Assembly: GCA_964419565.1 (NCBI GenBank)
Contig: CAYQPW010000008.1
Coordinates: 28,284-92,283 of the forward strand
DNA from: an uncultured bacterium
Lineage (GTDB): Bacteria; Hydrothermota; Tepidihabitantia; SM23-42
Direction: 5' to 3'
DNA: 64,000 nucleotides
Part shown: positions 5,407-55,912 of the stretch, piece after piece
Layout of the letters: each line of letters starts with the position of its first letter
Numbering within the stretch: the first letter of the stretch is position 1
The notes under the pieces: generated by a model
The model's database searches: none
Told to the model about the DNA's origin: nothing
Seen by the model: only the letters and a program-made list of their open reading frames with translations
Position numbers and translations under genes: made by a program

Positions 5407-5535
5407 TGACGATTGGAATCTACGCTTGATGCATACTGGGCGAATAGTCGAATGCTGAAATATTAGCAGTTACCGTTCAACGAATTGTATTGTTGTGTTC
5501 CTGGTTGACTTCATACAAAAAAATGGTATTCTTCT

Positions 5536-6861
5536 ATGCCGATTATGCGAATTCCGATAACGATAAAATTCAGCACTTTGATATTTCTTCTAATCGTAGT
5601 GATTACGGGCGTAATATTCTGGTTCACACTGAATCGGGTAAGAGATGCTTTAACTCAAGAAATAAAACTTCAGGGCGAAATATTGGCGAATCTCATTGCT
5701 TTAAATGCCGAAGATCCGATAATAGCCAAAGATGATCTATATCTTGCGCGGCTGGTAAACGACGCGATCAAGAATGAAGGTGTAAGGTATACATACATTG
5801 TTGATAGTGATCAAATCATTCTCGCTTATGATAAGATGGACTGGATAGGACGGTCTGCTGACTCGATTATTAGGCCGGAAAACACATACCATGTAACACG
5901 GCCAATTGTGTTGGCTGGTAGAAAAAAGATCGGGGAAGTCCACGTCGGGCTTGATATTGAACGAATAAGCAAAATAACGAATAATATGCAGATTATCCTT
6001 ATTCTGATTTCCGTCATGGGATTACTTCTTGGCACGTTTGGTGCTATGTTACTCTCAAGATATTTGACCCGACCCATTCATGAACTTGTCGATGGCTTCA
6101 AAGCGATCGCTAATGGTGATCTTCGCCAGGTGCTCAGTAAAAAATCTGATGATGAGATCGGTGATTTAATGTCCGCGTTCAACCAGATGACCCAAAGCTT
6201 AATGGAAAAAGAGCAGATTAAGGATGCTTTTCGGAGATATGTATCGCGTCAGGTAGCTGAAGAAATATTTAAGAATCCGGATCAGTATATCGATACCTTA
6301 CGCGGAACCAGGCGCAAAGTTACTATACTCTTTGCCGATATACGGGGGTTTACACCACTGACCGAACGTTTGTCTGCCGAGGATGTTGTTACACTACTCA
6401 ATGAAGTTCTAACTAGTATGACAAAGGTGATATTCAAGCATGAAGGCACCGTCGATAAATTCATAGGCGACTCTATAATGGCTGTTTTCGGCGCACCAAT
6501 TGCCCATGTTGATGACACGGATCGATCGATACATGCGGCAGTCGAGATTCAAAGAGCCGTTCAGGAAATGAGTGAACAACGTAGAAGGGAAGAACGCGAA
6601 ATGATCAATGTGGGCATTGGGATTAATGCTGGTGAGGTGGTCGTTGGGAATATCGGCGCAAAAGTTCGTCTTGACTATACTGTGATCGGCGCGTCAGTTA
6701 ATATCGCAAATAGACTTCAGGAAGTGGCGAGTGGAGGTGAAATAGTTATTTCAGAAAGCGTTTTTAAGGAGACTACCGCGCCTTATAAGTATTCTGAGCC
6801 CATGCTCATCAAGGTAAAAGGAAAAGAAGATCCGGTTAAGATTTACCGGGTCTTGTATTGA
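5536..6861 (+). CDS. Membrane-anchored class III adenylate/guanylate cyclase with HAMP domain
   Basis: N-terminal TM segment (FSTLIFLLIVVITGVIFWF), a second TM, a HAMP-like segment (RPIHELVDGFKAIANGDLRQVLSKKSDDEIGDLMSAFNQM), then a cyclase core (KVTILFADIRGFTPLTERL...KFIGDSIMAVFGAP...GINAGEVVVGNIG). Confidence 0.9.
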   Translation: MPIMRIPITIKFSTLIFLLIVVITGVIFWFTLNRVRDALTQEIKLQGEILANLIALNAEDPIIAKDDLYLARLVNDAIKNEGVRYTYIVDSDQIILAYDKMDWIGRSADSIIRPENTYHVTRPIVLAGRKKIGEVHVGLDIERISKITNNMQIILILISVMGLLLGTFGAMLLSRYLTRPIHELVDGFKAIANGDLRQVLSKKSDDEIGDLMSAFNQMTQSLMEKEQIKDAFRRYVSRQVAEEIFKNPDQYIDTLRGTRRKVTILFADIRGFTPLTERLSAEDVVTLLNEVLTSMTKVIFKHEGTVDKFIGDSIMAVFGAPIAHVDDTDRSIHAAVEIQRAVQEMSEQRRREEREMINVGIGINAGEVVVGNIGAKVRLDYTVIGASVNIANRLQEVASGGEIVISESVFKETTAPYKYSEPMLIKVKGKEDPVKIYRVLY

Positions 6862-6862
6862 T

Positions 6863-7951
6863 TTAACCGATGATCAAACTGAATATCGCTCCGCTCAAAA
6901 TTAAAAATATTGGTTCAATTTTGAGCAAAAGTAAGATTATTAAAATTATCAGGCCAAAAATTCCATAAGGTACATTAACCCAATTTAAAAGGACAAAACT
7001 AATCCCCGTAGATAGTAAGATAGCTACAACCGCAGATTTAATACCAGTAAAAAAGGACATAACGAATTTATTATTACAGATCCTTTTGTAGATTTTAACC
7101 AGGACAATCAACATAATAAAAGAAGGAATGAAAATGCAGAATGAAGCTATGATCGCACCCGGTATGCCCATTACTTTTAAACCGACAAAGGTCGCCGTTA
7201 TCGCTACCGGTCCCGGGGTCATTTGGCCTAATGCCATGCCGTTAAGAAATTCTTGGGGAGTGAGCCAGGTTCGAGTAGTGCAGACCTCGTTTTTAATAAA
7301 AGGTATAGCTGCATAACCGCCGCCAAAGATAATCGCGCCTATTTTAAGGAATATCGCAGCTAAAGTGAGCGCCTTTTTCGGTTCAAATACGAATAATGGA
7401 ACAGCAAGCAAGCAGCGCTCGACATTTTTGACATAATCTAACATGACTCTAAGAAAACCACAGAGAAGAACCGTGAAGATAGGGTCAAATTTTACTAAGA
7501 AAAGTACTAAAGCGAAGAAGAAAATAATAAGACCCTTAATATCTTTAATAAGAACCTTGCCCATATCATATGCAGCCCAGAGAATTATCGATGTCATGAC
7601 TGCGCTAATCCCTTTAAATATTTGTGCAACTCCTGGCAGTGACTGGTAAGTAAGATAGAACCATGATAGAATTACCATAAGAACGAAAGAAGGCAGGAGT
7701 AAGGCGATCGCGGCGATCGCCGCTCCTTTCATCCCGAATAGGTGATATCCTATATATTCACAGTAATTCGGGATGAAAGGACCTGGTAATATCTGTCCCA
7801 TTGCCACTGCCGTACAGAGATCATCGTCGTCTATCAATTTTTTCTTTTTTACACATTCATTCCGTAGAATAGCAAGCATGCCAATACCACCACCAAACCC
7901 AAAAAGGCCAACTTTAAAAAGGGCTTTTGCTAAATCTTTAAGGGTTTTCAC
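6863..7951 (-). CDS. chrA: Chromate ion transporter (CHR) family protein with two CHR repeats
   Basis: Duplicated CHR signatures: FGFGGGIGMLAILRNE...GQILPGP and FGGGYAAIPFIKNE...WLTPQEFLNGMALGQMTPGPV. Polytopic and hydrophobic. Confidence 0.85.
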   Translation of the reverse strand: MKTLKDLAKALFKVGLFGFGGGIGMLAILRNECVKKKKLIDDDDLCTAVAMGQILPGPFIPNYCEYIGYHLFGMKGAAIAAIALLLPSFVLMVILSWFYLTYQSLPGVAQIFKGISAVMTSIILWAAYDMGKVLIKDIKGLIIFFFALVLFLVKFDPIFTVLLCGFLRVMLDYVKNVERCLLAVPLFVFEPKKALTLAAIFLKIGAIIFGGGYAAIPFIKNEVCTTRTWLTPQEFLNGMALGQMTPGPVAITATFVGLKVMGIPGAIIASFCIFIPSFIMLIVLVKIYKRICNNKFVMSFFTGIKSAVVAILLSTGISFVLLNWVNVPYGIFGLIILIILLLLKIEPIFLILSGAIFSLIIG

Positions 7952-8748
7952 TTGTTATAACTAGCGGTTTGGTAACCGGCAAGATCGAGGACCACAGACT
8001 CATAACCGAGTCGCTTAAAGTACCTCACAATGCGCTTGCTATTATCTAATATGAAATTGAATTCCGCAGTATAGACTTCGATGCGGGCTACAGGGAAATG
8101 ATCGCGCACCCGGATTTGGGAAAGGTCTAATCGTCTTAAGTAGTTCTCTGCTCGATCGATCCGTTCCAGGATTTTTTTATCTATTTTTTCTCCATAAGGG
8201 ATTCTCGATGCTAAGCATGCCATCGATGGTTTATTCCAGTTGGGTAGCTGTAATTTTCTGGCAGTCAAGCGGATCTCTTGTTTGGTTAAACCAACTTCAA
8301 TAAAAGGAGATAAGACTTTTAGTTTTCTTAAAGCTCTGAGCCCTGGTCGATGATCCGAGAGATCAGATTTGTTGCTTCCTTCAAGAACACTGAAGCCAAA
8401 TTTCGCAGCGATTGATTTTATCTGTTTGAATAATTGAAGTTTGCAGAGATAGCAGCGGTTTTTTGCATTACTGATAAATCGTGGGTTCGCTAACTCGCGG
8501 GTTCTGAGACAAATGTGCTTAACGCCCAAAGACTTAGCCAATTTCTTGGCATAAATAATATCTCTTTTCGGCTGAATCGGTGAAACGGCAGTAACCGCGA
8601 CGACATTGTTCTTCAATACATCGATCGTTAGTTTCAGTAACAGGGTTGAGTCGACGCCTCCTGAAAAGGCAACGACAGCACCTGGATACCTTTTTAAAAT
8701 ATTTTTTATTTCTATGATTTTGCTCTGTACCACCAAAGCCCTCTGCAT
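7948..8748 (-). CDS. PP-loop ATP pyrophosphatase, LarE-like (TIGR00268-type) sulfur transferase family
   Basis: PP-loop motif AFSGGVDSTLLL near the N-terminus, a later SMACLASRIPYG motif resembling the LarE Cys-loop, and a length of 266 aa. Confidence 0.65.
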   Translation of the reverse strand: MQRALVVQSKIIEIKNILKRYPGAVVAFSGGVDSTLLLKLTIDVLKNNVVAVTAVSPIQPKRDIIYAKKLAKSLGVKHICLRTRELANPRFISNAKNRCYLCKLQLFKQIKSIAAKFGFSVLEGSNKSDLSDHRPGLRALRKLKVLSPFIEVGLTKQEIRLTARKLQLPNWNKPSMACLASRIPYGEKIDKKILERIDRAENYLRRLDLSQIRVRDHFPVARIEVYTAEFNFILDNSKRIVRYFKRLGYESVVLDLAGYQTASYNK

Positions 8749-14977: not shown

Positions 14978-15120
14978 CGGGGTGAGGTCTTGAAACTTAA
15001 AAATAGATTCTTAACGCGATCTTCAGTTAGCAATAACCTTGAGGGTGTATCTTAAATTTCAAGACCTGACCCCACTATGTCGTCTTGACATAAGAATAAT
15101 TTAGCATAAAATTATTTTAG

Positions 15121-18100
15121 ATGCGAGAAATCTATTACGACGAACTCACCGGTAGCTATAATCGCCGGTTCCTGCACTATTGGATAGACAATGAAATAAA
15201 AAGAGCGACCCGGTTCCCCGCCAAATTTGCTATATTAATGCTCGATATAGATGATTTTCGCAATATAAATAATAGCTGTGGTCATTTAGAGGGTGATAAA
15301 GTACTCATCGAGTTCAGCCGTGTATTAGATATCAACATAAGAGAAGTCGACAGCCTTGTTCGTTATGGTGGCGATGAATACCTCATCTTAATGCCGAATA
15401 CCGATGAAAGTGGTGCGATCGAGCTGGCGCAAAGGGTCATGGATTATCTGAACGAGTCTGATATTGTCGGACACAAGATACACTGCAGTATTGGATATGC
15501 GATATTTCCTGAAGATGGAATTACTTCTGAACCTTTGATCAATCAGGCAGACAATTTAATGTACAATGCAAAGGAACAGGGGAAAAATCGGATCGGCTCA
15601 AAGCAGCAGGCAGTGAAAAACCTTCAGATCCCTTCATTAGAGACGATCGGACGAGAAGATGAAACAAACTGGTGTCTTGGTGAGCTTAAGGATTATGATA
15701 CGTTATTTGTTGCCGGTGGAGCTGGTATAGGAAAAACAAGGCTTGTGCTTGAAATCAAAGATCGAATCAATGCGCCGGTTTTTCTTAGGGGTAATGCCTA
15801 TGCAGCGTTAACATCGGTTCCTTATCACCCGTTTAAGAATATGTTCAGCGAGATGATTAAACGGGATTTTGGTCTAGTCCAGCGGGTTTTTAAGCAATTA
15901 CCGGCAATATCACAGGCTGAGATCATGAAGATCTTTCCGGCCGAGAGTGCACTTAAAGTCACTTATGCGGAAAGTCTTGACAAGTACAGGTTATATAATT
16001 CGGTCAGCGAATTCCTTCAAAGAGTTTATGACATTCATGCTCCCGGTAAAATATTATTGTTACTCGATGATCTTCACTGGTTAGATAAGCCAAGTTGTGA
16101 GTTGATGGATTTTGTGATAAGAAGCACTCATGGAAACTGTAAGATTTTTGGAACATACCGGATTGAAGAAATAAAGAATTCAGCGATTGAGGAATTCTAT
16201 AACGTTTGGATAAGAGAGAAACTTTATACACAAATAACGGTTTCTCCATTGAACGAAACCCAGACTGAGCGTTTATTAAAGGCGATCATGGGTAAGGCGC
16301 CGGGGTCGGGGTTCAAACATATTTTCAAACAAAGCGGCGGTAATCCATTTTATCTTGAGGAGATCATAAGGGAAATGGAAAGGCAGGGAAAACTCTACTG
16401 GAATGGCAAAGAGTGGGTTTTTGCCAGGAGGCTTGAAATAACGATCCCGAGTACAATTGAAGCAACGATCAATAGAAAACTCAAATTTCTTGACTCGGAA
16501 ATAAAGAAGTATCTTGAAATTGCTGCTGTTTACGGGCAGGAATTCGGTGCCGAAATCATCGCCTTAGCGAGTAATAGAAATGTTGGGCAGATCCTTGATG
16601 CGATTGATGAATTATCGAGACTTGGATTCCTGAAGGAACGTAGCCACGATAATCATTTTTTCTCTGAAGATCTGGTTCGTCAAATCGTATATAATAATAT
16701 CAATCGTCAGGATCTGATCAAATATCACCGGGCTGTTGGCGTAACCATAGAAACTATTTATCGCAATGTGCTGCCCAATTATTACGAACAACTGGCAACT
16801 CACTTCATGATCGCTAACGAAGTAAGTAAAGCGCTTTACTATTCCAAAGAAGCGGCTCGCAAAGCACAAAATAATTATGCGCACAGCGCAGCGATCAAAT
16901 TTTATGAGAATGCTTTGAAATACGAAGATAATATCGACGAAATATTCAAGATCAAATTTGCGTTGGCTGAAATATTTTTTTTGATAGGCAAGTTCGACAA
17001 AGCGATCGAGCAGCTGAACGTCTGTTTGAAAATAAACCCGAATTCGTATCGAGTACACGAGAAGCTTGGCAATGTTTATGAAGATATGGGTGATTACAAG
17101 CAGAGTATAAAACAATATCAGGTAGGATTGAAGCTAACCAGAGGAACTGATGCTGTCTATTCATTCGAGAGTGATATCGCCTGGGTGCATACCCGTCTGG
17201 GCGATTATAATAAAGCGGAAATTAAATGCCACAAAGTTTTGACGAAAAGAAGACATCTAAGCAAACAAACCCTTGGTGATACCTATTTGATATTGGGTGT
17301 TGTGTATCTCCGTCTGGGTAAATTCAAAAAAGCAGAATCATATATCAGAAAGGCGTTGAAGATCCGTGAGTCCAGTGGAGATAAAAAACGCATTGCCGCG
17401 TGTTATCTTGATCTTGGCTTGAACTACTATGAAAAATTAGACGAGGAGAAAAGCCATCATTTCTATAACCGGGCTTTGAAAATCTACAAGGAAATCGGTC
17501 ACCAGCAGGGTATCCTTATTGCGTATAATAATATCGGTGCACTTTATGCAAACACTGATTTAACCAAGGCCGAAGAATATTATCTGGAAGCTTTAAAACA
17601 GGCAAAATTGGTGAACGCAAAACAGTCGATCGTCTACCTGTACTCCAATCTTGGTGCCATTGAGTTTAACCGCATGATGTATGACCAGACGCTGCTTCAC
17701 TACAAAGAAGCGTTAAAACATGCAAAGCTCATGAATTATCCTGCAGGGATTGTTTTTAGTAATATTGGATTGAGTGATTTCTATCGAGAACAGGGAAAGA
17801 TAAAACGCGGCAAGCTGCATTTGGAGCGAGCGATCAAAGCGGCAGAACGAGTGGACATGAAGTACCTTCATCTTGACTGCATGAAAGAGGAAATAGACTA
17901 TCTGCTCCTTGAGCGGAAATTGAAAAAAGCAGATGCCCTTTCTAAAAAAATGTTATCAGCGCTACGTATGGAGCGAAAGGGTTCATACAAGGTCAATAGC
18001 TTCATTTATCGGGGAAAGGTATTCACCGAACAGAAGAAATATCCCAAAGCCCTTGAGCATTACACAAAAGCTTTCTCATATTTAAAAACATACCCCAGTA

Positions 18101-18270
18101 CGCGCTTAGCTGGCGAAATTTACTTTTTGCGGGGCATTGTGTACAAAAAACAAAAAAAGACAAGAGAAGCTCTGAAGATGTTCCTTGAGGCGACCAATAT
18201 TTTCCGGGCTAAAGGCAATCTGAGATTCGTCGATAAGATCGAGCGGGAGATTACCGAAGCACATATTTAA
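15121..18270 (+). CDS. Diguanylate cyclase (GGDEF) fused to a STAND/AAA16-type P-loop NTPase and a C-terminal TPR array
   Basis: The GGDEF domain starts at residue about 7 (DELTGSYNRRF). I-site REVD lies 5 residues before RYGGDEY. P-loop AGGAGIGKTRLV at about residue 198-209, Walker B LLLLDDLHWLD, then about 450 aa of TPR-like repeats (AIKFYENALKY, GNVYEDMGDYKQSIKQYQ...). Confidence 0.85.
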   Translation: MREIYYDELTGSYNRRFLHYWIDNEIKRATRFPAKFAILMLDIDDFRNINNSCGHLEGDKVLIEFSRVLDINIREVDSLVRYGGDEYLILMPNTDESGAIELAQRVMDYLNESDIVGHKIHCSIGYAIFPEDGITSEPLINQADNLMYNAKEQGKNRIGSKQQAVKNLQIPSLETIGREDETNWCLGELKDYDTLFVAGGAGIGKTRLVLEIKDRINAPVFLRGNAYAALTSVPYHPFKNMFSEMIKRDFGLVQRVFKQLPAISQAEIMKIFPAESALKVTYAESLDKYRLYNSVSEFLQRVYDIHAPGKILLLLDDLHWLDKPSCELMDFVIRSTHGNCKIFGTYRIEEIKNSAIEEFYNVWIREKLYTQITVSPLNETQTERLLKAIMGKAPGSGFKHIFKQSGGNPFYLEEIIREMERQGKLYWNGKEWVFARRLEITIPSTIEATINRKLKFLDSEIKKYLEIAAVYGQEFGAEIIALASNRNVGQILDAIDELSRLGFLKERSHDNHFFSEDLVRQIVYNNINRQDLIKYHRAVGVTIETIYRNVLPNYYEQLATHFMIANEVSKALYYSKEAARKAQNNYAHSAAIKFYENALKYEDNIDEIFKIKFALAEIFFLIGKFDKAIEQLNVCLKINPNSYRVHEKLGNVYEDMGDYKQSIKQYQVGLKLTRGTDAVYSFESDIAWVHTRLGDYNKAEIKCHKVLTKRRHLSKQTLGDTYLILGVVYLRLGKFKKAESYIRKALKIRESSGDKKRIAACYLDLGLNYYEKLDEEKSHHFYNRALKIYKEIGHQQGILIAYNNIGALYANTDLTKAEEYYLEALKQAKLVNAKQSIVYLYSNLGAIEFNRMMYDQTLLHYKEALKHAKLMNYPAGIVFSNIGLSDFYREQGKIKRGKLHLERAIKAAERVDMKYLHLDCMKEEIDYLLLERKLKKADALSKKMLSALRMERKGSYKVNSFIYRGKVFTEQKKYPKALEHYTKAFSYLKTYPSTRLAGEIYFLRGIVYKKQKKTREALKMFLEATNIFRAKGNLRFVDKIEREITEAHI

Positions 18271-20425: not shown

Positions 20426-20457
20426 TATACCTCCTTTAATTACAATCGCCAATAATG

Positions 20458-20529
20458 CGGCCCCAACGGGAATCGAACCCGTGTCTCCACCTTGAAAGAG
20501 TGATGTCCTAACCGCTAGACGATGGGGCC
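20458..20529 (-). tRNA. tRNA-Glu (anticodon TTC), CCA not encoded
   Basis: Reverse complement GGCCCCATCGTCTAGCGGTTAGGACATCACTCTTTCAAGGTGGAGACACGGGTTCGATTCCCGTTGGGGCCG folds as a 72-nt cloverleaf with anticodon loop CTTTCAA. Confidence 0.9.
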
Positions 20530-21023
20530 TTGTGCGTCAGAATGTACAAATTTCTGAAGGATTCATTGTCGACGATTGCCTGGTTTATTAAAAAATAGTT
20601 CTCGAGATTTGAATTGGTTGCCATGATTCGGTTACTCAAATCTTCACCCATTGCTAAAAGGAACTTTGCGGCAACTTTCGGATTCTCACTTAAAATTTCC
20701 ATGAAATCCTGTTTCTTCAAGGTCAACAACCGGCAATTTGTCTTGGCTTTGACTGTAGCAGACCTTGGTTTTTCGGTAAGCAGAGCCATTTCACCAAAAA
20801 ATGACGCTTCCTGCAATTCCGATAAAAGCAAAACAACATCACCGCGCGTCAAGTAAACTTCAACTCTCCCGGATTCAATTATGTACATCTCATCGCCGGT
20901 CGTACCTTCTTTAATAATCACCGTATTCTCTTGTATGTCTCGTGTTTTCCATTTAACGAGCATCCAATCAATCTCCTGAGGAGTCAGGTATTTAAAAAGC
21001 CTAACCTTTGTAATATCCTTCAT
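20508..21023 (-). CDS. Cyclic nucleotide-binding domain protein (stand-alone cNMP-binding)
   Basis: cNMP-binding fold motifs: IIKEGTTGDEMYIIESGRVEV...FFGEMALLTEKPRSATVKA. The last 7 codons and the TAG stop overlap the 5' part of tRNA-Glu. Confidence 0.8.
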   Translation of the reverse strand: MKDITKVRLFKYLTPQEIDWMLVKWKTRDIQENTVIIKEGTTGDEMYIIESGRVEVYLTRGDVVLLLSELQEASFFGEMALLTEKPRSATVKAKTNCRLLTLKKQDFMEILSENPKVAAKFLLAMGEDLSNRIMATNSNLENYFLINQAIVDNESFRNLYILTHKAPSSSG

Positions 21024-21074
21024 AAACCCATTCTATTCATATTTGGCTAATTGTCAAGACCACTATTTTGGAAG

Positions 21075-22730: not shown

Positions 22731-22858
22731 GAAACCTCCTGAAATAATTATATGAAGCATCATGTGTTTGTCAACACAGGTGAATTATCGGGCACAAAGA
22801 TTTGACAACAGAGCATTTGCATCTTGATTTTTTCTTAATGCCAAGTATAATACCAGAG

Positions 22859-23587
22859 ATGTCTAAAAAGTCGATATACGACACGTTGAACCAAAAAAAG
22901 CCTGGTGTACTGGCACTTTTTGACCCTGATCGCATGGCTATTGATCAAGTTGGAGAAATAACAGAGTATGTTAGCGCCCGAGGTGTTGCAGGTATTCTTG
23001 TCGGCTCATCTATCCTTATATCACCACACCTCGATACTTTTATTGCCGAAGTAAAAAATCATACAAAGAAACCCGTGATTCTTTTTCCTGGAGGTTCTCA
23101 TCAAGTTTCGGCAAATGCCGATGCGATATTCTTTTTGTCATTATTGAGTGGAAGGAATGCCGAGTATCTGGTGGGCGAACAGGTCAAGGCAGTATTCCTG
23201 GTCAAGGAATATGGTCTTGATGTTATCCCGGTAGGTTATATTCTTATTGAATCAGGACATTGCACAGCAGTCGAGTACATGTCAAATACTCGTTCAATCC
23301 CCCGTTTAAAACCCGAGATCGCCATGGCGCATGCACTGACCGGTGAATATTTCGGGATGAAATACATATACCTTGAAGCAGGTAGCGGTGCTGAGCAAGC
23401 AGTCCCTATTGAGGTGGTGAAAAAGGTAAAAGAGACTATCTCTATCCCGCTGATCGTTGGCGGGGGTATAAGAAGTGCCGAGACTGCTCAGGGGTTAATC
23501 AAAGCTGGTGCTGATTACATTGTACTTGGTAGCATTATAGAACGATCCAAGGAACAATTTGAAGTAATTATGAAAGGAGCGGGATGA
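22859..23587 (+). CDS. Geranylgeranylglyceryl/heptaprenylglyceryl phosphate synthase family protein (GGGPS/PcrB)
   Basis: Family motifs: LFDPDR, ADAIFFLSLLSGRNAEYLVGEQ, YIYLEAGSGA, PLIVGGGIRS. Start set at MSKKSIYD (ATG 22859), 7 nt after a TTGATT-16-TATAAT promoter. Confidence 0.8.
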   Translation: MSKKSIYDTLNQKKPGVLALFDPDRMAIDQVGEITEYVSARGVAGILVGSSILISPHLDTFIAEVKNHTKKPVILFPGGSHQVSANADAIFFLSLLSGRNAEYLVGEQVKAVFLVKEYGLDVIPVGYILIESGHCTAVEYMSNTRSIPRLKPEIAMAHALTGEYFGMKYIYLEAGSGAEQAVPIEVVKKVKETISIPLIVGGGIRSAETAQGLIKAGADYIVLGSIIERSKEQFEVIMKGAG

Positions 23588-33957: not shown

Positions 33958-34780
33958 GCTTCCAGATAATACTCAATATCCGTATCAGGGTATTTCGGAG
34001 TTCTTTTCTCGATACGACAATGTCGATCATCCCGTGGGCTAGCAGATTCTCTGACCGCTGTAATCCCGGTGGAAATTTCTCACCGATGGTTTGTTCCGCG
34101 ACCCGGGCACCGGTAAATCCAAGCAAAGCGCCGGGTTCGGTAATAATAATATCGCCTAAAGAAGCATAAGAGGCCATAACACCGGCTGTTGTCGGGTGGG
34201 TGAGGATAGAGATGTAAGGCAGTTTATTCTGAGCCAGGAGGGCCAATTCCGCGGATGTTTTTGCCATTTGCATTAAAGATAATATCCCTTCTTGCATCCG
34301 GGCACCACCCGATGCCGACAGGATTATCAAAGGCAGTTTTTTCTCGCGTGCTGTCCGAATAGCCCGGGCTATTTTTTCACCTATTACTGAACCCATACTA
34401 CCACCCATAAAAGCAAAATCCATTGCCGCAAAAACAACTTCTATACCGCCGATCGTAGCAAGACCATAGACGACGCCTTCTTTCATGCCGGTTTTTTCCT
34501 GGGCGGTTTTGATTTTTTTCTTGTATTCAGGAAAGTCTAGAGGATCCAGGGCTTCGAGGTTCTCGTCTTTTTCATTGAGATGAGCATTGTCAAACAATAG
34601 GGAGATGTACTTACGGTTATTTATCCTGAAATGAAAATTGCATTTTGTGCAAATCCACAGATTTTTCTCGAGTTCCTTACGATAAAGGATCTCCCCGCAG
34701 GTTTCACATTTAACCCATATTCCGTCGGGGAGTTTTAATTTCTCTTCCGGCTTTGCTTTTACCTTTTTCTTAAACCACAT
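33935..34780 (-). CDS. accD: Acetyl-CoA carboxylase carboxyltransferase beta subunit
   Basis: N-terminal zinc ribbon CETCGEILYRKELEKNLWICTKCNFHFR plus the carboxyltransferase domain (FAFMGGSMGSVIGEK). Confidence 0.93.
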   Translation of the reverse strand: MWFKKKVKAKPEEKLKLPDGIWVKCETCGEILYRKELEKNLWICTKCNFHFRINNRKYISLLFDNAHLNEKDENLEALDPLDFPEYKKKIKTAQEKTGMKEGVVYGLATIGGIEVVFAAMDFAFMGGSMGSVIGEKIARAIRTAREKKLPLIILSASGGARMQEGILSLMQMAKTSAELALLAQNKLPYISILTHPTTAGVMASYASLGDIIITEPGALLGFTGARVAEQTIGEKFPPGLQRSENLLAHGMIDIVVSRKELRNTLIRILSIIWKHGETPTK

Positions 34781-38871: not shown

Positions 38872-38923
38872 AACTTTGCAAAAATTATATGCCAAATGCT
38901 TAACATGTCAAGATTAATGATTT

Positions 38924-40075: not shown

Positions 40076-40211
40076 GATTTCCTCCTCTTTACTTGAATTT
40101 ATCGAATTAAGTGTAATGAGGAAAGTCTGATTGTCAATATAACCGATTGACAGCAGATGGTTTCTTATTATAATTCCCTCAGGTCCTATTAGAAGAAAGG
40201 AGGTTGATAGA

Positions 40212-40619: not shown

Positions 40620-40802
40620 CAATATTTTGGTTAGGGGTGAACCCTAAACATAAGTGATAACGAGGGCAGGTTCACCCTATGGAGTGTCCTGTCAGTTAAT
40701 AATAATAAGAGGAGTTTTTCTCGTAACTATGTCAAAATCCGTGGTAAAAGCACGGCTTTGACCTTAAGGTAATGCTTGACGACTGGGGGAAAATCAGTAT
40801 AA

Positions 40803-43007
<2,205 letters not shown>

Positions 43008-46180: not shown

Positions 46181-46284
46181 CAAACCTCCATTCGGTCAAG
46201 TATATATCAGTAAATCGTGAAGTCAAGACCAAGCTGAGATTAACGAATGAGTTGAAATCCAATACAGGACAGATATAATGACGA

Positions 46285-46971
46285 ATGATCGGGGTAATCG
46301 CAAATACCATGCTTGTTCTTGTCGGTAGCGTGATAGGACTTATTCTAAAAAAAGGTATCCCTGAAAATATAAAGAAATCCATTATGACAGGCCTAGGTCT
46401 TTTTACATGTGTCCTCGGCATGAAATTCGGGCTCGAGCTGAATAACGGTCTGGTCGTTGTATTGAGTATTATTACCGGCGGTGCACTCGGTCAATTGATC
46501 GGCATTGAAGAAGGTATTGAAAGACTCGGTCTAAAACTAAAGAAACTAATAAATACACAAGATAAGGGTCTTTTTGCTCAAGGTTTTGTATTCGCCAGTC
46601 TGCTCTTTTGTATCGGACCTATGACCGTGCTCGGTTGTGTCCAGGCTGGTCTGGGAAATAACCCGGAACTTCTCTTTATTAAATCATTAATGGACGGCGT
46701 GTCGGCGATCATCTTAGCATCCTCTTTTGGCATAGGCGTGCTTTTTTCAGCACTTACGGTTCTTTTTTATCAGGGGGGATTGGTCTTGCTTGCCGGTCAG
46801 ATGGGTTTCTTAACGATACCTAAATACTTAAATGATTTTACGAGTGTCGGCGGGATAATAATCTTCAGTATAGGTATCAAATTATTAGGGCTCAAGCCGA
46901 TAAAAAGCGGAAATTTTTTGCCAGCTCTGGTCTTAGTTATTTTGATTACTTTTTTGATGAGCATCATTTAA
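46285..46971 (+). CDS. DUF554-family membrane protein (YqgA/YdfK-like)
   Basis: MIGVIANTMLVLVGSVIGLILKKGIPE...MTGLGLFTCVLGMKF, the typical DUF554 N-terminus. Polytopic. Confidence 0.7.
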   Translation: MIGVIANTMLVLVGSVIGLILKKGIPENIKKSIMTGLGLFTCVLGMKFGLELNNGLVVVLSIITGGALGQLIGIEEGIERLGLKLKKLINTQDKGLFAQGFVFASLLFCIGPMTVLGCVQAGLGNNPELLFIKSLMDGVSAIILASSFGIGVLFSALTVLFYQGGLVLLAGQMGFLTIPKYLNDFTSVGGIIIFSIGIKLLGLKPIKSGNFLPALVLVILITFLMSII

Positions 46972-46976
46972 TTATC

Positions 46977-47004
46977 TTGACTAAATAGATTTTCCATTTA
47001 TAAT
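46977..47004 (+). promoter_or_regulatory. Sigma70-type promoter for the riboswitch and TonB-dependent receptor transcript
   Basis: TTGACT (46977..46982), a 16-nt spacer, then TATAAT (46999..47004). Confidence 0.5.
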
Positions 47005-47011
47005 ACTCCAG

Positions 47012-47218: not shown

Positions 47219-49174
47219 ATGATACCTTTGGCTTTTCTTGTCATACTCATTGCTCAACCGATCTATGAACTGGATGAGATCGTCGTTACTGCTACGCGTT
47301 ATCCTGCAGCTTTACAGGATGTCGCATTAGCAACGATAGTCATTGATCGGGAAGAACTCGACGAGTTCAATCCATCGAGTCTCACGGATGTTTTACAAAC
47401 ATACGCTGGTACTGATACCAAAGATTATGGTGTTCCAGGGACAGTGTCGAGCATATCTATCCGCGGCATTCCATCGAATGGCACACTGGTGCTCATTAAT
47501 GGTCATCCATTGAACTCGATAACCGTGGGGATGGCCGATCTGAGTGCGATAAATCTCAGTACAATCGAGCGTATTGAAATCGTTAAAGGACCGGTTTCAA
47601 GCTTGTACGGCGCGAATGGTCTTGGTGGTGCAGTAAATATCATAACAACAAAAGGTTATAAAAAGCCTGAATTCAAAATGTCCTTTTGTCCATCAACGAC
47701 CGATATAGATGTTCCCTTACAATCAAGAGAATTCTTTGCCAAACTGGGTTTACCAGCAGGTAGAATGATCTTTGACATTGCCGCAACATACGGTGCTTCT
47801 GATGGTTTCAGAGAAAACAGTGAATATACCGGCTATTATCTAACAGGTTCACTCGGCTATGAACTCGATAATACAAAGTTCATATCATCGCTGGTTTATA
47901 GTAATAGAGAATACGGATTGCCCGGACCAATGCTTGCCGATTCTACTTCCTCTTCTTTACTCGACCATGAGAAAGATGAATACCTTTTAGGAGATATAAA
48001 CATTTCATGGAACTTTTTAGAGAATTTTGCATGGGATAATACTTTATTTGCGGATCGTCGTTTTATCAAGTATCATACCGCGTATACGGATCTAAGTCAG
48101 GATACGCTGGAGAGTGATTATGATTACCTGACCTATGTTGTTGGCGTCAATTCGATCGCTCATTTTAAAAGCGGTAGGACTGATTTGACGATCGGTATTG
48201 ATACCCACTTTGACACCCTGGAAACGACTGAGACCCATGAGCTGTCGCGCGATACAATTTGGAATGCTTCTTCACATAATATCGGCGCCTGGCTTGAATT
48301 CAAATACCGAATAAAACATATTATTCTTGCGCCGAGCCTGAGATATGACCGGAATTCAAGGTTTGGGAATTTCCTTTCACCTGGGGTAGGTCTTATCAGC
48401 CCGCTTATTGATAATCTCTGGATTAAATTATCTGCGGGCAAGGCCTTTCGTGCACCGACATTCAATGACTTGTTCTGGCCTAATGCTGGCAATCCAGATC
48501 TTAAACCAGAACATGGCTGGGCATATGAATTACGCTTTGAAAGTTCTCCTTCACCGACGCTCTTCGCAGCATTATCTTTGTTTGCACGTTCTGTAAATGA
48601 CCGGATAGCCTGGCTTCCGGGCGATAATAATATGTGGCAGCCGCAGAATGTTAACCATATTTCAGTTCGTGGTGTGGATTTCGAAATGAACAAACAGATC
48701 AATGATTTCACAAACATTTATCTTGAAGGGTCTTATTTACAAGCAAAACAGAGAAACAATGAGATTACCTATGATTTTTATGATTGGGTAGCTGATACAA
48801 GCCTTACAATTATTGAAGAAGTAAAAAGAGATGCTGCTTTTACCCCAAAATATACGGCTTCAGCAAGACTCCATTTCAGTTTACCTTATGGATATGATTT
48901 TAATATCGAAGGTTTGTACGTCGCTGCGCAGGTCAACTATTATGTTAGTTATGATGAATACCCTGATATAACGATGGATACTAAAACACTCGATTCCTAT
49001 ATAATGCTCAATATAGGTTTTAGTAAAAAGGTCTTGAATTACCTGAAACTATCAGTCGGTGCGAAAAATCTACTAGACAAAGACCATGCGAAACAATTCG
49101 GTAATAGTATGACCGACTTGGATTATCCGATGCCTGGACGCCTGTTCTTTGCCCGGATCTCCATGGATTATTGA
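47219..49174 (+). CDS. btuB: TonB-dependent receptor, probable vitamin B12/cobinamide transporter (BtuB-like)
   Basis: Plug domain with a TonB-box-like DEIVVTATR and IEIVKGPVSSLYGANGLGGAVNIIT. A 22-strand-type barrel that ends ...FFARISMDY with a terminal aromatic. The riboswitch context supports B12 specificity. Confidence 0.8.
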   Translation: MIPLAFLVILIAQPIYELDEIVVTATRYPAALQDVALATIVIDREELDEFNPSSLTDVLQTYAGTDTKDYGVPGTVSSISIRGIPSNGTLVLINGHPLNSITVGMADLSAINLSTIERIEIVKGPVSSLYGANGLGGAVNIITTKGYKKPEFKMSFCPSTTDIDVPLQSREFFAKLGLPAGRMIFDIAATYGASDGFRENSEYTGYYLTGSLGYELDNTKFISSLVYSNREYGLPGPMLADSTSSSLLDHEKDEYLLGDINISWNFLENFAWDNTLFADRRFIKYHTAYTDLSQDTLESDYDYLTYVVGVNSIAHFKSGRTDLTIGIDTHFDTLETTETHELSRDTIWNASSHNIGAWLEFKYRIKHIILAPSLRYDRNSRFGNFLSPGVGLISPLIDNLWIKLSAGKAFRAPTFNDLFWPNAGNPDLKPEHGWAYELRFESSPSPTLFAALSLFARSVNDRIAWLPGDNNMWQPQNVNHISVRGVDFEMNKQINDFTNIYLEGSYLQAKQRNNEITYDFYDWVADTSLTIIEEVKRDAAFTPKYTASARLHFSLPYGYDFNIEGLYVAAQVNYYVSYDEYPDITMDTKTLDSYIMLNIGFSKKVLNYLKLSVGAKNLLDKDHAKQFGNSMTDLDYPMPGRLFFARISMDY

Positions 49175-49199
49175 CACCATAAATCATTTTGATTATACT
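49171..49199 (+). promoter_or_regulatory. Sigma70-type promoter for rnpB, overlapping the btuB-like stop codon
   Basis: TTGACA (49171..49176, containing the TGA stop at 49172..49174), a 17-nt spacer, then TATACT (49194..49199). The P1 5' strand begins about 6 nt downstream. Confidence 0.55.
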
Positions 49200-49252: not shown

Positions 49253-49513
49253 ATGTTCTATGTCTATTTAATAAGAAGCAAAAAGGACAAGAGATTATAC
49301 ACTGGTTATGCTAATGACCTTAAACGAAGATTCAATGAACATAATTCAGGTTTCAACAAATGCACCAAGGGACGTGGACCGTTTGAGCTGATGTGTTATG
49401 AAGCATATGAAGCCAAACAAGATGCAGTACATCGGGAGAAAATGTTAAAGCTTAGAGCAAAAGCTCTCGGTCAATTAAAAAGACGTCTCCAATATAGTCT
49501 GGATATTCCCTAA
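49253..49513 (+). CDS. Small GIY-YIG nuclease-domain protein (86 aa) encoded inside the rnpB P3 loop
   Basis: MFYVYLIRSKKDKRLYTGYANDLKRRFNEHNSG... carries the GIY-YIG hallmarks (YVY...YTG, R, EHN). Confidence 0.8.
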   Translation: MFYVYLIRSKKDKRLYTGYANDLKRRFNEHNSGFNKCTKGRGPFELMCYEAYEAKQDAVHREKMLKLRAKALGQLKRRLQYSLDIP

Positions 49514-49614: not shown

Positions 49615-49848
49615 ATGCATTATGTTTACATTTTTAAGAAACGGAATAATGAAGAGATCTATATCGGTTGTACGAACAATCTCAAGAGAAGATCTCGAGA
49701 ACATAATGTCCACGGTATGAAGTGGGATTTGATTTATTATCAAGCATACAAGGCGCGAAAAGATGCTTACTTACGGGAAGAAAGGCTCAAGTATTATGGT
49801 CAGGCGCTTGGTCAACTTAAGAGGCGCATTAAGAATAGCCTTGTATGA
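49615..49848 (+). CDS. Small GIY-YIG nuclease-domain protein (77 aa) encoded inside the rnpB P9 loop
   Basis: MHYVYIFKKRNNEEIYIGCTNNLKRRSREHNVHG... is a paralog of the P3-loop ORF. Shared motifs are NxLKRR, EHN and the C-terminal ALGQLKRR. Confidence 0.8.
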   Translation: MHYVYIFKKRNNEEIYIGCTNNLKRRSREHNVHGMKWDLIYYQAYKARKDAYLREERLKYYGQALGQLKRRIKNSLV

Positions 49849-51866: not shown

Positions 51867-52532
51867 ATGAAATTGCAGGGGAATAAAGGAGCGCCTTTTA
51901 TAGAATGGAAGCTTATTGAAGAAGATAATATGAAATTCTTCCAATTCAAATCAGGTAATTGGATCATGAATTATTCAACGATAGGGACAGATGATAGATT
52001 CCTTGAGCATTTTAAACCGTTCCTTCTCAAACAGATCCATTCAGATACAATTATTAATATAGACAATACAGAAAACAGGATCGGAGACGGGTTGATTACG
52101 CACAAGAAAAATCAATTTTTAGGGATCAAGATCGCAGATTGCTTGCCGGTTTTCTTATTTAATGAACAAAAAATGTGTATGATCCACTGTGGCTGGCGCG
52201 GGATCATCAAAAAGATAACACAAAGAGCAAAAATACTCATGGGTGACTACAAATATGTACTCGGCGCATGTATAGGACCATGCTGCTATGAAGTTGGTGA
52301 TGAAATTGCACACCTTTTTAAAGCGCAGTATAAGAATGCAGTGATCAACAGCGATAAGAAATCTTTTATCGATCTTAAAACCGCAGTTATAGAAGATCTT
52401 GGCAAAGACAGACTCATCGGTAACCTTGACCTTTGTACAAAATGCCATCCTGAGTATTTTTATTCATATCGCCGGGGCGATATGAAAAAGCGAAATTATT
52501 CTATCGCTACAGAAGTCAAGAGCAAATATTGA
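51867..52532 (+). CDS. pgeF: YfiH/PgeF (DUF152, laccase-domain) family protein
   Basis: KQIHSD..., GDGLIT, LGIKIADCLPVFLF, MIHCGWRG, GPCCYEVG, SYRR. The start is uncertain: ATG 51867 or the internal MKFFQF. Confidence 0.8.
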   Translation: MKLQGNKGAPFIEWKLIEEDNMKFFQFKSGNWIMNYSTIGTDDRFLEHFKPFLLKQIHSDTIINIDNTENRIGDGLITHKKNQFLGIKIADCLPVFLFNEQKMCMIHCGWRGIIKKITQRAKILMGDYKYVLGACIGPCCYEVGDEIAHLFKAQYKNAVINSDKKSFIDLKTAVIEDLGKDRLIGNLDLCTKCHPEYFYSYRRGDMKKRNYSIATEVKSKY

Positions 52533-52562
52533 CTTGCATGTGAAACCCGATAAAATGGATTG

Positions 52563-54638
52563 ATGTCGAGGTCACTTTTTTTCCTTATTTTTCCTTTAAT
52601 GCTATTGGCACGAGAATGGACTGCGCTCGTTTATATGGCAGCAGATAATGATCTTGCCCAGTGGGCTGATTCAGACCTTGTAGAAATGGAAACAGTCGGT
52701 TCAAGCGATGATTTTTCCATTATCGTCCAGGTCGATAAACCATATATCGGTGCAAAACGGCTTCTTGTCAGTAATGGAACCTCTTATGAACTGCAGAATC
52801 TGGGCATTGTCGATATGTGTGATCAGGAGACCCTCGTCGATTTTCTCGAATGGGGGATGCGTAACTATCCAGCAGAAAAATACTTTGTGATCCTGTGGGA
52901 CCACGGTTCAGGGTGGACATTCATGCCCAAGTACTCTTTTGGAAGCGATTGGTCGAGCGGCAATGAACTTGGGGTTTACAATGGTGATCTGCGCAACGCA
53001 TTGAGATCGCTTTATACTTATACCGAAAAAAGAATCGACCTTTTCGCATTCGATGCGTGTTTGATGCAGCAGATCGAAGTCGCCTTTGAATTAATAGATT
53101 ATGCAGATATTTTCCTTGCTCCCCAATCATTATGTCCGACACAGGGTTTTTGTTATGATAAGATATTTGCCTATCTTGATGCTGATCCAAAAAAAGATGC
53201 AAAGGATATCGCTCAAGCATCAATCCCTTTATTAATGGAAACCTACAGCAATGTGCAGCCGGTCGCCTTTTCCGCGCTTGAACTGACAAAACTCGATGGT
53301 TTCAAGGCTGCTCTTGATAAATTCGCAGATGCGATGATAAACGGAACACCAAATCCGTTATTGATCAATATCCGTGATAATGTCCAGACGATACCGATAC
53401 GAGATCAAGCACCATCACCAGATGATGAATTCATTGATCTGGGAGATTTGACACAAGGATTAGATGCGCTTTATGGCATTAGTGAAACACAGTCGCTCAC
53501 TCAAGCTTATGATCAGGTGATATTAGAATCTGGTTTTTGGGGTGATGATTTTTCCGGTGTCACTGGTCTAACGATCTGGTTTCCACGCGAATACCGACTA
53601 TTCAAACAGCTCGTCGATGAATACAGCGGACTCGATTGGGCATATTCAAGGTGGCGTCAATTTCTCAATTGGTATTACAATGCCGATGATATCAGACCGA
53701 CATCAGTGAGCTGGTTGAACACGAGTAATGTCGGCAATAATAATGATTTTGAGTTATCCTGGGGTACATCACATGATCTTGCTCCAGTCACATATAGTAT
53801 ATTTGAAATATTCTCTGATAGCACGATAGACATTTTACTTGACCCGTGCGAGGATTCAAACCAGTGGAATTTCCAGGGGTTTGTTATCGATTCGAGCAAT
53901 ACATATTCAGGTACCGGATGTTTTTTCTCGGGCAATGCCAGTAATCTGCAAAATTCCATCGAGACCAAGCAAGTAATTTCATTACAGAATATGTCGATCC
54001 TCGATCTTTATCTTTATTATAATACTGAAGATATGACTGATTCTTTGATCATCGAATTTGCCGGGTTTCAGGATATCCATTATGGCTGGTCAAATGGCTG
54101 GCAAAGACGTCGGGTCATACTGCCTTCGGGCAGCGACCGATTGACTATTTCTTACCGGACAAATGGCTCGATCAATCGAGGAGGATGCTATCTTGATGAG
54201 ATCGAGGTCAACGAGATGAAAAATAGTAAGTTGATCCGGGAATTTCTATTAGACACAACCTTGTATATTTTTGGGAAAACAAGAGGGGATTATGGATATG
54301 CGGTTATTGCAAAAGATAGTTATGGCAATACCAACAATTTAAGTGATTTTCTTAACGTATCGATCGAACGCTATGCCACGCCGTATTCAGTCCCAGGACC
54401 GTTTCAAACAAATTGCCAGATTGTCCTGGATTTTCCGGATTCTCTTGCGCCAGTCATTAAGATCTTCTCAATATCTGGAAGATTGGTAAAGAGTTTTGAC
54501 CCAGAGCTGATCGATAATAAACGCATATTTTGGGACGGCAAAGACAAAAGTGGTAAGGATGTCGGGTCTGGGCTTTATTTTGTCTTGGTTCAAGGAGATG
54601 GTTTTAAAAAACTTGGTAAAATAGCGAGGCAAAGATGA
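52563..54638 (+). CDS. Clostripain-family (peptidase C11) cysteine protease with C-terminal T9SS-type sorting domain
   Basis: Signal peptide, then C11 motifs WTALVYMAADNDL, ILWDHGSGW and FAFDACLMQQIEV (catalytic His/Cys context). CTD-like tail IKIFSISGRLV...GSGLYFVLVQGDGFKKLGKIARQR. Confidence 0.8.
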   Translation: MSRSLFFLIFPLMLLAREWTALVYMAADNDLAQWADSDLVEMETVGSSDDFSIIVQVDKPYIGAKRLLVSNGTSYELQNLGIVDMCDQETLVDFLEWGMRNYPAEKYFVILWDHGSGWTFMPKYSFGSDWSSGNELGVYNGDLRNALRSLYTYTEKRIDLFAFDACLMQQIEVAFELIDYADIFLAPQSLCPTQGFCYDKIFAYLDADPKKDAKDIAQASIPLLMETYSNVQPVAFSALELTKLDGFKAALDKFADAMINGTPNPLLINIRDNVQTIPIRDQAPSPDDEFIDLGDLTQGLDALYGISETQSLTQAYDQVILESGFWGDDFSGVTGLTIWFPREYRLFKQLVDEYSGLDWAYSRWRQFLNWYYNADDIRPTSVSWLNTSNVGNNNDFELSWGTSHDLAPVTYSIFEIFSDSTIDILLDPCEDSNQWNFQGFVIDSSNTYSGTGCFFSGNASNLQNSIETKQVISLQNMSILDLYLYYNTEDMTDSLIIEFAGFQDIHYGWSNGWQRRRVILPSGSDRLTISYRTNGSINRGGCYLDEIEVNEMKNSKLIREFLLDTTLYIFGKTRGDYGYAVIAKDSYGNTNNLSDFLNVSIERYATPYSVPGPFQTNCQIVLDFPDSLAPVIKIFSISGRLVKSFDPELIDNKRIFWDGKDKSGKDVGSGLYFVLVQGDGFKKLGKIARQR

Positions 54639-55522
54639 AAAAGTACAAACCAGTCATTATCGCTCATGGCGGCGCCGGTGGTATTAACCACCCGAATCGG
54701 CGCTTGCAAGGGTTGATCAAAGCATGCAGTATCGGGTATGGTATGTTGATGCAAGGTAGCTCAAGCCTTGATGCGGTCGAGCGCGCAATCATGATACTTG
54801 AAGATATTTCGATCTTCAATGCGGGCAGGGGTTCTTCGTTCAATCTTGAAGGCATCCCTGAAATGGATGCATCGATAATGACGAGTGAAATGAGATTCGG
54901 CGCGGTCGCAGCGATTACCGATGTACAATACCCGATAAAGGTAGCGCGCATGGTTATGGAAAAAACCGACCACCTTGTGCTCGGCGGTAAGCATGCGGTA
55001 CGGTTCGCACGCATCATGGGTATGCCTAAGTTTGATTGTCGGACAAAAGAAAAAAAGCGCATTTGGCAGAGAATGCACAAAAAGCTGCGCAGTGCATATT
55101 TTCAGAAACTCGCCGACCTTGCTGAATACTATGGTACGGTCGGGGTCGTGGCGATCGATAAGAATGGATCGATCACTGCCGGGACATCGAGCGGTGGTAT
55201 TACCATGCGTTTACCCGGACGTATCGGCGATACACCCTCGCCTGGCGCCGGTACTTTTGCCGATAAAAACGGGGGCGTGGGTGCGACCGGACACGGTGAG
55301 GAGATATTACGCCACCTCTTATCATTCCGCGCCGTGCAGCTCATGGCGCGTTACCCAGCACCAACAGCCGGTAAAAAGATGATCGAATATGCTTCAACAC
55401 ATAAATGCCGCTGCGGTCTCATCGGTATCGATAAAAAAGGCCGGATCATGTGCGTGAATAATACCAAGGCGATGTCCTGGTGCTATATCAAGCATGGACG
55501 CATGCACATGTTCAAATACTAG
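54635..55522 (+). CDS. Isoaspartyl peptidase/L-asparaginase (Ntn-hydrolase, asparaginase-2 family)
   Basis: IIAHGGAG, NAGRGS, the autoprocessing site GTVGVVAIDKNGSITAGTSSGG, and GATGHGEEI. Confidence 0.88.
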   Translation: MKKYKPVIIAHGGAGGINHPNRRLQGLIKACSIGYGMLMQGSSSLDAVERAIMILEDISIFNAGRGSSFNLEGIPEMDASIMTSEMRFGAVAAITDVQYPIKVARMVMEKTDHLVLGGKHAVRFARIMGMPKFDCRTKEKKRIWQRMHKKLRSAYFQKLADLAEYYGTVGVVAIDKNGSITAGTSSGGITMRLPGRIGDTPSPGAGTFADKNGGVGATGHGEEILRHLLSFRAVQLMARYPAPTAGKKMIEYASTHKCRCGLIGIDKKGRIMCVNNTKAMSWCYIKHGRMHMFKY

Positions 55523-55543
55523 CAGCCGTATATTTTTTTGTCA

Positions 55544-55564
55544 TTATCCAGTTCAACTGGATAA
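55544..55564 (+). terminator. Probable terminator hairpin after the asparaginase gene
   Basis: TTATCCAGT-TCA-ACTGGATAA, a 9-bp perfect stem followed by a T-rich TCCATATTTCT. Confidence 0.45.
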
Positions 55565-55714
55565 TCCATATTTCTGGAAGTCAATGGGCTCAAATCTTTG
55601 CAATTCACAATTGAGATAATCAGATTCTGAAAAAGAGCTTTTTAGAATGACCCCGACGGATTGTACGGTTTATGCATAGCATTGACAAGTCTGGTGTGTT
55701 TGCTATAATAACCC

Positions 55715-55912
55715 ATGGCTAAGATCGATAAGGTACTGTGTCCCTTTTGTATGTTTACCTCAAAATATATAGATCTAACGATAACTGATGAAGGTTTTTA
55801 TATATGTCCAAGCTGCAATGCAACTTTTTCTTATGAAGAGCTTATGCAGCTATACAGCTTCACTCAATTTACTTTTGAATTGAAGGACAGCAAATTCAAT
55901 CCAACTATATAA
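55715..55912 (+). CDS. Small zinc-ribbon protein (65 aa), hypothetical
   Basis: CPFC...CPSC pairs. The ATG lies 5 nt after a TTGACA-16-TATAAT promoter (55682..55709). Confidence 0.5.
   Translation: MAKIDKVLCPFCMFTSKYIDLTITDEGFYICPSCNATFSYEELMQLYSFTQFTFELKDSKFNPTI

Follow-up and report, generated by a model that had tools for sequence, protein, structure and literature searches.

In Escherichia coli, leaderless mRNAs are known as single cases, such as lambda cI transcribed from PRM and Tn1721 tetR, and initiation on them needs a 5'-terminal AUG. In actinobacterial and Deinococcus leaderless promoters, the -35 element is weak. Genomes assigned to group C by GeneMarkS-2 have a Pribnow box about 6 to 8 nt from the starts of leaderless first genes and Shine-Dalgarno (SD) sites elsewhere (PMC6028130). 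Members include Mycobacterium tuberculosis, Streptomyces, Corynebacterium, and Deinococcus deserti, with about 25 to 50% of transcripts leaderless; the group is frequent in Actinobacteria and Deinococcus-Thermus, and genomes of the Fibrobacteres-Chlorobi-Bacteroidetes (FCB) group belong mostly to group B (PMC6028130). In Thermotoga maritima, leaderless transcripts were not detected, and minimal 5' untranslated regions (UTRs) of 11 to 17 nt hold only the SD site (PMC3636130). Here we describe a 64,000-nt stretch of DNA (the window; G+C content, 41.6%) from an uncultured bacterium of candidate division WOR-3 (Candidatus Stahlbacteria), in which near-consensus promoters end only a few nucleotides before the start codons of guaB, accD, and several other genes. 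Very probably, leaderless initiation operates here beside SD-dependent initiation and is driven by a housekeeping promoter placed close to the ATG.

Promoter and start codon pairs in the window

We scanned the window for pairs of TTGACA and TATAAT hexamers, counting matches out of 12 and taking first-order Markov simulations as the expectation. At a spacer of 16 nt, 17 sites have at least 11 matches (0.55 expected), and 7 match at all 12 positions (0.02 expected). Eight sites with at least 10 matches are followed 5 to 8 nt later by the ATG of an open reading frame (ORF) of at least 60 codons, compared with 0.03 expected. Counts for spacers of 15, 17, or 18 nt are at chance level. All strong sites with a spacer of 16 or 17 nt are intergenic, and each points at a gene or an RNA.

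The original prediction had listed six such promoters directly ahead of an ATG, along with a weaker seventh case. All six lie where they had been placed, each with a 16-nt spacer and with the gaps given below. Three minus-strand pairs of the same type, beginning at ATG 34780, 21023, and 58618, were absent from that first list; the observation is real and was understated. In these nine genes, the -10 hexamer ends 5 to 10 nt ahead of the start codon, and no GGAGG-like run is present in the intervening nucleotides. The nine promoters, each followed by its gene, and the weaker site are given here; the genes are leaderless candidates, the last of them leaderless or near-leaderless.

15085..15112, plus strand: promoter TTGACA-16-TAAAAT, 8 nt to ATG 15121
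15121..18270, plus strand: GGDEF-AAA-TPR protein of 1049 amino acids; the GGDEF profile begins at residue 5
22824..22851, plus strand: promoter TTGATT-16-TATAAT, 7 nt to ATG 22859; divergent from the SD-led promoter 22774..22747
22859..23587, plus strand: GGGP/heptaprenylglyceryl phosphate synthase (PcrB family)
40776..40803, plus strand: promoter TTGACG-16-TATAAT, 5 nt to ATG 40809
40809..42272, plus strand: guaB (IMP dehydrogenase)
46252..46279, plus strand: promoter TTGAAA-16-TATAAT, 5 nt to ATG 46285
46285..46971, plus strand: DUF554 membrane protein
52529..52556, plus strand: promoter TTGACT-16-TAAAAT, 6 nt to ATG 52563; overlaps the stop codon of the upstream gene
52563..54638, plus strand: clostripain-family (C11) peptidase with an N-terminal hydrophobic segment; Peptidase_C11 domain from residue 23
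55682..55709, plus strand: perfect promoter TTGACA-16-TATAAT, 5 nt to ATG 55715
55715..55912, plus strand: Cys-rich small protein of 65 amino acids
34815..34788, minus strand: promoter TTGACA-16-TAAAAT, 7 nt to ATG 34780; fills the 45-nt gap behind the upstream gene
33935..34780, minus strand: accD (acetyl-CoA carboxylase beta subunit)
21057..21030, minus strand: promoter TTGACA-16-TAGAAT, 6 nt to ATG 21023
20508..21023, minus strand: cNMP-binding protein
58656..58629, minus strand: perfect promoter TTGACA-16-TATAAT, 10 nt to ATG 58618; predicted leader of 0 to 4 nt, no SD
56894..58618, minus strand: 574-amino-acid protein without a family match
5505..5532, plus strand: weak promoter-like site TTGACT-16-(TGg)TATTCT, 3 nt to ATG 5536 and 12 nt to ATG 5545

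The weaker case at ATG 5536 is present as described, with a 16-nt spacer and a 3-nt gap, and it stays weak. Its -10 hexamer, TATTCT, is poor, though a TG precedes it, and ATG 5545 is an equally possible start. Profile alignment puts residue 14 of this protein on profile position 14, which fits either start, and no orthologue was found among the comparative loci that we fetched.

Two initiation modes had been proposed to run side by side, and a tally of 54 curated starts in the window bears this out: 9 are leaderless-type and 27 are SD-like, with a site at -4 to -12. The other 18 have neither arrangement and are mostly operon-internal or overlapping.

The unit at 20425-21057 (minus strand) apparently runs from the cNMP-binding gene (21023..20508) through tRNA-Glu (20529..20457), which overlaps the final 22 nt of the cNMP-binding ORF, to an SD-led gene with ATG 20425. 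The PcrB-family synthase at 22859-23587 (plus strand) matches NCBIfam NF003198 with 277 bits and belongs to a family linked to archaeal-type ether lipids.

The housekeeping promoter and its RNA genes

The same bipartite motif also precedes genes for untranslated RNAs and a riboswitch:

5406..5379, minus strand: perfect promoter, 9 nt upstream of tRNA-Met (5296-5369)
30062..30089, plus strand: perfect promoter, 19 nt upstream of tRNA-Leu (30109-30192)
38911..38884, minus strand: perfect promoter, 12 nt upstream of tRNA-Gly (38800-38871)
46977..47004, plus strand: promoter abutting a cobalamin riboswitch (Rfam match 47001-47192), ahead of the SD-led TonB receptor gene 47219
49171..49199, plus strand: promoter TTGACA-17-TATACT, 5 nt before the first P1 nucleotide of RNase P RNA

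Because it lies upstream of three tRNAs, the cobalamin riboswitch, and RNase P RNA, TTGACA-16-TATAAT is a housekeeping promoter of the sigma-70 type. For comparison with relatives, we used a guaB-based scan with one genome per species, which yielded 46 loci (given L numbers here); the best matches are metagenome-assembled genomes (MAGs) of Candidatus Stahlbacteria or candidate division WOR-3, with protein identities of 93 to 71%. The spacer falls within the 17 +/- 1 bp of sigma-70 promoters and is nearly always 16 bp, in the window as in each of the four WOR-3 clades, where the counts for 16, 17, and 18 bp are 46:10:1, 72:4:0, 49:7:6, and 7:0:0. Across 49 species surveyed, a 17-bp spacer predominates (PMC12641261). 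Further features of the motif are an A or C immediately before the -35 hexamer and a T four nucleotides before the -10 hexamer. In the window and loci L001-L043 together, there is about one site with at least 11 of 12 matches per 3.6 kb. This near-consensus promoter grammar with its 16-bp spacer is the most distinctive feature of the WOR-3 arrangement.

RNase P RNA allows the transcription start to be calibrated. When the window sequence is aligned with those of five relatives, TTGACA-17-TATAYT is conserved, and the first P1 base lies 5 nt past the -10 hexamer in all six species. Since P1 begins there, transcription would start at about the sixth nucleotide after the hexamer, a position that is occupied by the A of the ATG in the commonest leaderless class. 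In well-studied bacteria, the distance from the -10 hexamer to the transcription start is about 6 to 8 nt.

A separate observation concerns the gene behind tRNA-Met. This gene (ATG 5288, minus strand) encodes 1061 amino acids with an SBP_bac_5 domain and a weak, sub-threshold MCP-signalling-like match, and it begins 8 nt past the tRNA 3' end with no SD. Its sole promoter is the perfect one upstream of tRNA-Met (window 5288-5406, minus strand). Because the gene lies behind the tRNA without a promoter of its own, tRNA 3' processing could yield a near-leaderless mRNA.

Conservation across WOR-3 and the placement of start codons

The guaB upstream regions of 33 WOR-3 species align without gaps, with TTGAC, TATAAT, and the ATG at least 90% conserved. 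The -35 hexamer reads TTGAC(G/A/C), almost all 33 species have a 16-nt spacer (17 nt in L026), and the gap from the -10 hexamer to the invariant ATG is 5 nt in every one of them. Spacer and gap letters vary among clades while the geometry holds. In two loci outside the phylum, from Armatimonadota (L033) and Treponema (L040), a classical SD precedes guaB instead. The arrangement is also kept at 7 to 9 nt in accD orthologues from five species and at 5 to 6 nt in DUF554 orthologues from seven species, one of them with GTG. The single orthologue of the 65-amino-acid gene at 55715, in L005, is 93% identical and shares both the promoter and the 5-nt gap.

We then measured the distance from motif to start codon in a relaxed scan of 616,811 bp from 36 WOR-3 loci, requiring at least 5 of 6 matches in each hexamer and using reversed hexamers as a control; the counts leave out guaB and include the window. 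The original prediction had named enrichment of this distance as the check that could refute it, and the 617 kb show a sharp peak at 5 to 7 nt. ORF-opening ATGs occur 16, 19, and 11 times at 5, 6, and 7 nt past the -10 hexamer (46 in total) and about 1 to 3 times at other positions. With reversed hexamers, the distribution is flat, with 1 case among 169 sites. GTG is found at 5 to 7 nt in 6 cases, 5 of them at 5 nt, and TTG, CTG, and ATC form no peak over the same distances, with 2, 0, and 2 scattered cases.

Among spacer-16 promoters with at least 11 of 12 matches, 51 are leaderless-type without counting guaB, 32 belong to guaB, and 55 lie within 150 nt of an SD-led start; 49 more face RNA genes or lack an assigned target. 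Leaderless-type promoters make up about half of the strong ones with an assignable target, and most of the remainder have an SD within a very short leader. The arrangement spans 33 distinct protein families, guaB counted, which from their N-terminal sequences presumably include obg, tgt, pdxJ, aspartokinase, and SDR.

Four starts located 5 nt past the -10 hexamer are GTG where the orthologues from other species have ATG: L012:14393 (plus strand) and L014:7035, L017:7036, and L031:7075 (minus strand). The families concerned are DUF554 and an unidentified one with the conserved N-terminal motif NxFISFDIEG. This suggests that GTG can act as a leaderless start codon in WOR-3.

Could the proximity of motif and ATG be a coincidence in AT-rich intergenic DNA? 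A loose scan of the window (at least 9 of 12 matches) would allow it, as its 57 sites do not differ from the 50 in shuffled sequence; only stringent thresholds divide promoter signal from noise. Above those thresholds, the simulated counts for spacer-16 sites and for the joint occurrence with an ATG, the conservation over 33 species, and the flat reversed-hexamer control rule chance out, and we regard its probability as negligible.

In three of the six main genes, start codons had been proposed that differ from the longest-ORF calls, and these assignments hold: ATG 22859, 40809, and 52563 in place of TTG 22802, 40803, and 52560. The longer start lies inside the promoter in all three genes, and at the PcrB gene this is true of both TTG 22802 and ATG 22838. 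Protein profiles begin at or next to the promoter-adjacent ATGs. In DUF554, residue 2 falls on profile position 1 (Pfam PF04474), and in IMP dehydrogenase, residue 9 falls on position 1 (TIGR01302). Residue 5 of the GGDEF protein corresponds to position 2 of Pfam PF00990 and position 6 of TIGR00254, residue 2 of AccD to position 6 of 285 (TIGR00515), and residue 4 of GGGP synthase to position 7 of 249 (NF003198). Orthologue N-termini are conserved from the first Met. The agreement of profile and orthologue N-termini supports the promoter-adjacent ATGs as the likely true starts; starts placed here leave no space for an SD or a longer leader between promoter and gene.

This evidence also bears on the idea that the motifs are real promoters but that translation begins further downstream, at an in-frame codon preceded by its own SD, so that the promoter-near ATG would lie inside a leader. 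The profile matches from the first residues in guaB, accD, GGGP synthase, DUF554, and GGDEF, the orthologue N-termini, and the invariance of the ATG across 33 guaB loci make this very improbable. It would be easiest to accommodate for the proteins starting at 58618 and 55715, which have no family match, and at 5536, where ATG 5545 offers an alternative.

Another reading is that transcription comes mainly from further upstream and that the A/T-rich TATAAT is not a -10 element but an unstructured stretch on which ribosomes land without an SD. Starts 34780, 21023, and 52563, which lie in short gaps behind same-strand genes, would suit such a role. In contrast, at starts 22859, 46285, and 58618 the neighboring gene is divergent, which means that no transcript from upstream could continue into them. 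A landing site also would not account for a -35 hexamer conserved at a fixed 16 bp, for the identical bipartite motif ahead of untranslated RNAs, or for a distance peak merely 3 nt wide, and we consider this reading unlikely.

We therefore favor leaderless initiation from a housekeeping promoter, in line with the original interpretation of widespread leaderless mRNAs, which is supported by promoter geometry, orthologue conservation, and profile N-termini. In the mechanism that we propose, the housekeeping sigma factor would recognize TTGACA-16 bp-TATAAT, and RNA polymerase would begin about 6 to 8 nt downstream of the -10 hexamer. In nine to ten window genes, the A of the ATG would occupy that start position, and the primary transcript would open with the start codon, or within a few nucleotides of it, and contain no SD. 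On such a transcript, the ribosome would have to bind the 5'-terminal AUG directly. In other units, the same promoter, placed 15 to 40 nt or more upstream, would give a short leader with a GGAGG-type SD, and operon-internal genes would rely on SD sites or on overlapping stop/start coupling.

Several points weigh against this reading. The exact transcription starts are inferred from promoter geometry alone, the translation mechanism is a proposed one, and the comparative sample is confined to guaB neighborhoods. At 34780, 21023, and 52563, where the gaps behind same-strand genes are 45 to 50 nt, the ATG may be internal to read-through transcripts. The 8- to 10-nt gaps at 15121 and 58618 more likely give leaders of 1 to 4 nt than a strict 5'-AUG, and the 15121 orthologue in L018 keeps a consensus promoter with a gap of 12 nt. 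Finally, the 3-nt gap at 5536 is outside the geometry, and that case is doubtful.

A comparison of the window with L005 shows a difference behind one of these promoters. In the window (52529-55522, plus strand), TTGACT-16-TAAAAT drives the C11 peptidase gene, and the gene at 54635..55522, whose product resembles the isoaspartyl-peptidase/asparaginase type as judged by eye, comes after it. In L005, the orthologue of this second gene (L005:20251) sits 6 nt behind TTGACT-16-TAAAAT. It appears that a gene was gained or lost directly behind a retained promoter.

Short-leader genes, RNase P inserts, and known systems

As the original prediction had it, other genes in the window are SD-led, and a GGAGG-type site precedes all six of its examples (20425, 22730, 28018, 40075, 50168, and 58836). 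At 50168, just 1 nt separates the SD from the ATG, and translation may therefore really begin at TTG 50171. Promoters of SD-led genes include the following:

22774..22747, minus strand: perfect promoter, 16 nt before ATG 22730, with AGGAGG at the extreme 5' end of the predicted transcript
27973..28000, plus strand: promoter, 17 nt before ATG 28018, with AAGGAGAGG between
40110..40174, both strands: divergent promoter pair with -35 boxes 9 nt apart, serving the SD-led genes 40075 (minus strand) and 40212 (plus strand)

The WOR-3 scan shows a second peak of ATG distances at 15 to 20 nt from the -10 hexamer, with GGAGG at the extreme 5' end of the predicted transcript. The leader of this class would be about 9 to 14 nt long. 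Its members in the window are at 22747-22730, 45203-45159, and 46226-46180 (minus strand) and 27973-28018 (plus strand), and many others are found in L004-L043. N-terminal hydrophobic, signal-like segments occur in 59% of SD-led families versus 31% of leaderless ones (Fisher p = 0.054), which is only suggestive of a tendency of short-leader SD genes toward signal-like N-termini.

Divergent gene pairs have back-to-back promoters with -35 boxes 9 to 65 nt apart (40110-40174, 9635-9704, 46199-46279, 22747-22851, and 58629-58749), a distance that leaves little space for regulator sites. Elsewhere, a perfect 12/12 promoter with a 17-nt spacer, together with an SD, precedes a TTG-start signal-peptide ORF at 29675..29842 (plus strand). 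A second, overlapping frame at 29815..30018 (plus strand) resembles a type IX secretion system (T9SS) C-terminal sorting domain as judged by eye. The region 29626-30018 (plus strand) has the look of a secreted-protein remnant, either frameshifted or with an internal deletion.

At about 926 nt (49205-50130, plus strand), the window's RNase P RNA gene is unusually long, compared with 372 to 422 nt in L001, L002, L003, L005, and L008. The excess consists of two inserts in terminal hairpins, each with a small GIY-YIG nuclease ORF:

49253..49513, plus strand: GIY-YIG ORF, insert in P3 of RNase P RNA
49615..49848, plus strand: GIY-YIG ORF, insert in the hairpin after P8 of RNase P RNA

The two proteins are 43% identical to each other. 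In the predicted minimum-free-energy fold, a perfect stem of about 20 to 25 bp closes off each insert, as in the intervening sequences of rRNA. A related element occupies the second, post-P8 site in L006, L012, and L047-L050 (RNase P coordinates of relatives with the element are L006:17545-18197, L012:17507-18284, L047:2398-3050, and L050:1871-2523), and it is at this other site in L006 that a close copy of the first, P3 element is found (87% amino acid identity). The nearest other GIY-YIG homologues (60 to 66%) are from bacteria of the candidate phyla radiation (CPR), and none of the three CPR loci that we checked lies inside an Rfam-detectable RNase P RNA. A literature search for GIY-YIG ORF inserts in RNase P RNA found no report.

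The promoter data raise a broader possibility, namely that the whole WOR-3 phylum runs on a rigid grammar, with a near-consensus TTGACA-16 bp-TATAAT at nearly every unit, a start 6 to 7 nt past the -10 hexamer, about half of the mRNAs leaderless, and most others beginning at the SD. We give this an even chance of being correct. If it is true, the lineage would have its own sigma factor and RNA polymerase geometry, with a spacer one bp under the 17-bp optimum, and the units and true starts of an almost uncultured phylum would be predictable from sequence alone. The fixed 16-bp spacer leads to a concrete prediction that can be tested on the sigma factor and polymerase of WOR-3, and the near-consensus promoter permits promoter-anchored annotation of transcription units in WOR-3 MAGs. 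Gene callers that prefer the longest ORF or demand an SD will misplace WOR-3 starts, and three of the six main genes are affected.

A literature search found no paper that mentions both leaderless transcripts and WOR-3, and broader searches returned only general surveys. As a major mode, leaderless initiation is documented mainly in Actinobacteria, Deinococcus-Thermus, and archaea; the present case would add a deep, nearly uncultured phylum. The architecture matches group C, which is known from other phyla and for which we found no report from WOR-3. As in group C, the -10 element is close to first-in-operon starts that have no SD, and the remaining genes use SD sites. Unlike in group C, the -35 element is as conserved as the -10 element and the spacer is almost always 16 bp, and the phylum is a different one.

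WOR-3 resembles T. maritima in the near-consensus promoters, the class of minimal, SD-only leaders (of a predicted 9 to 14 nt or so in WOR-3), and the small intergenic space. The two differ in that leaderless transcripts would be a major class in WOR-3 and none were detected in T. maritima (PMC3636130), and in that most T. maritima promoters lean on an extended -10 element, whereas those of WOR-3 lean on the -35 and -10 elements together. As with lambda cI and Tn1721 tetR, the transcript in WOR-3 would begin at the A of the AUG. Those two mRNAs, however, are rare exceptions in an SD-dominated genome, whereas the WOR-3 mode would cover housekeeping genes such as guaB and accD, along with obg, tgt, and pdxJ in relatives, and extends across the phylum.

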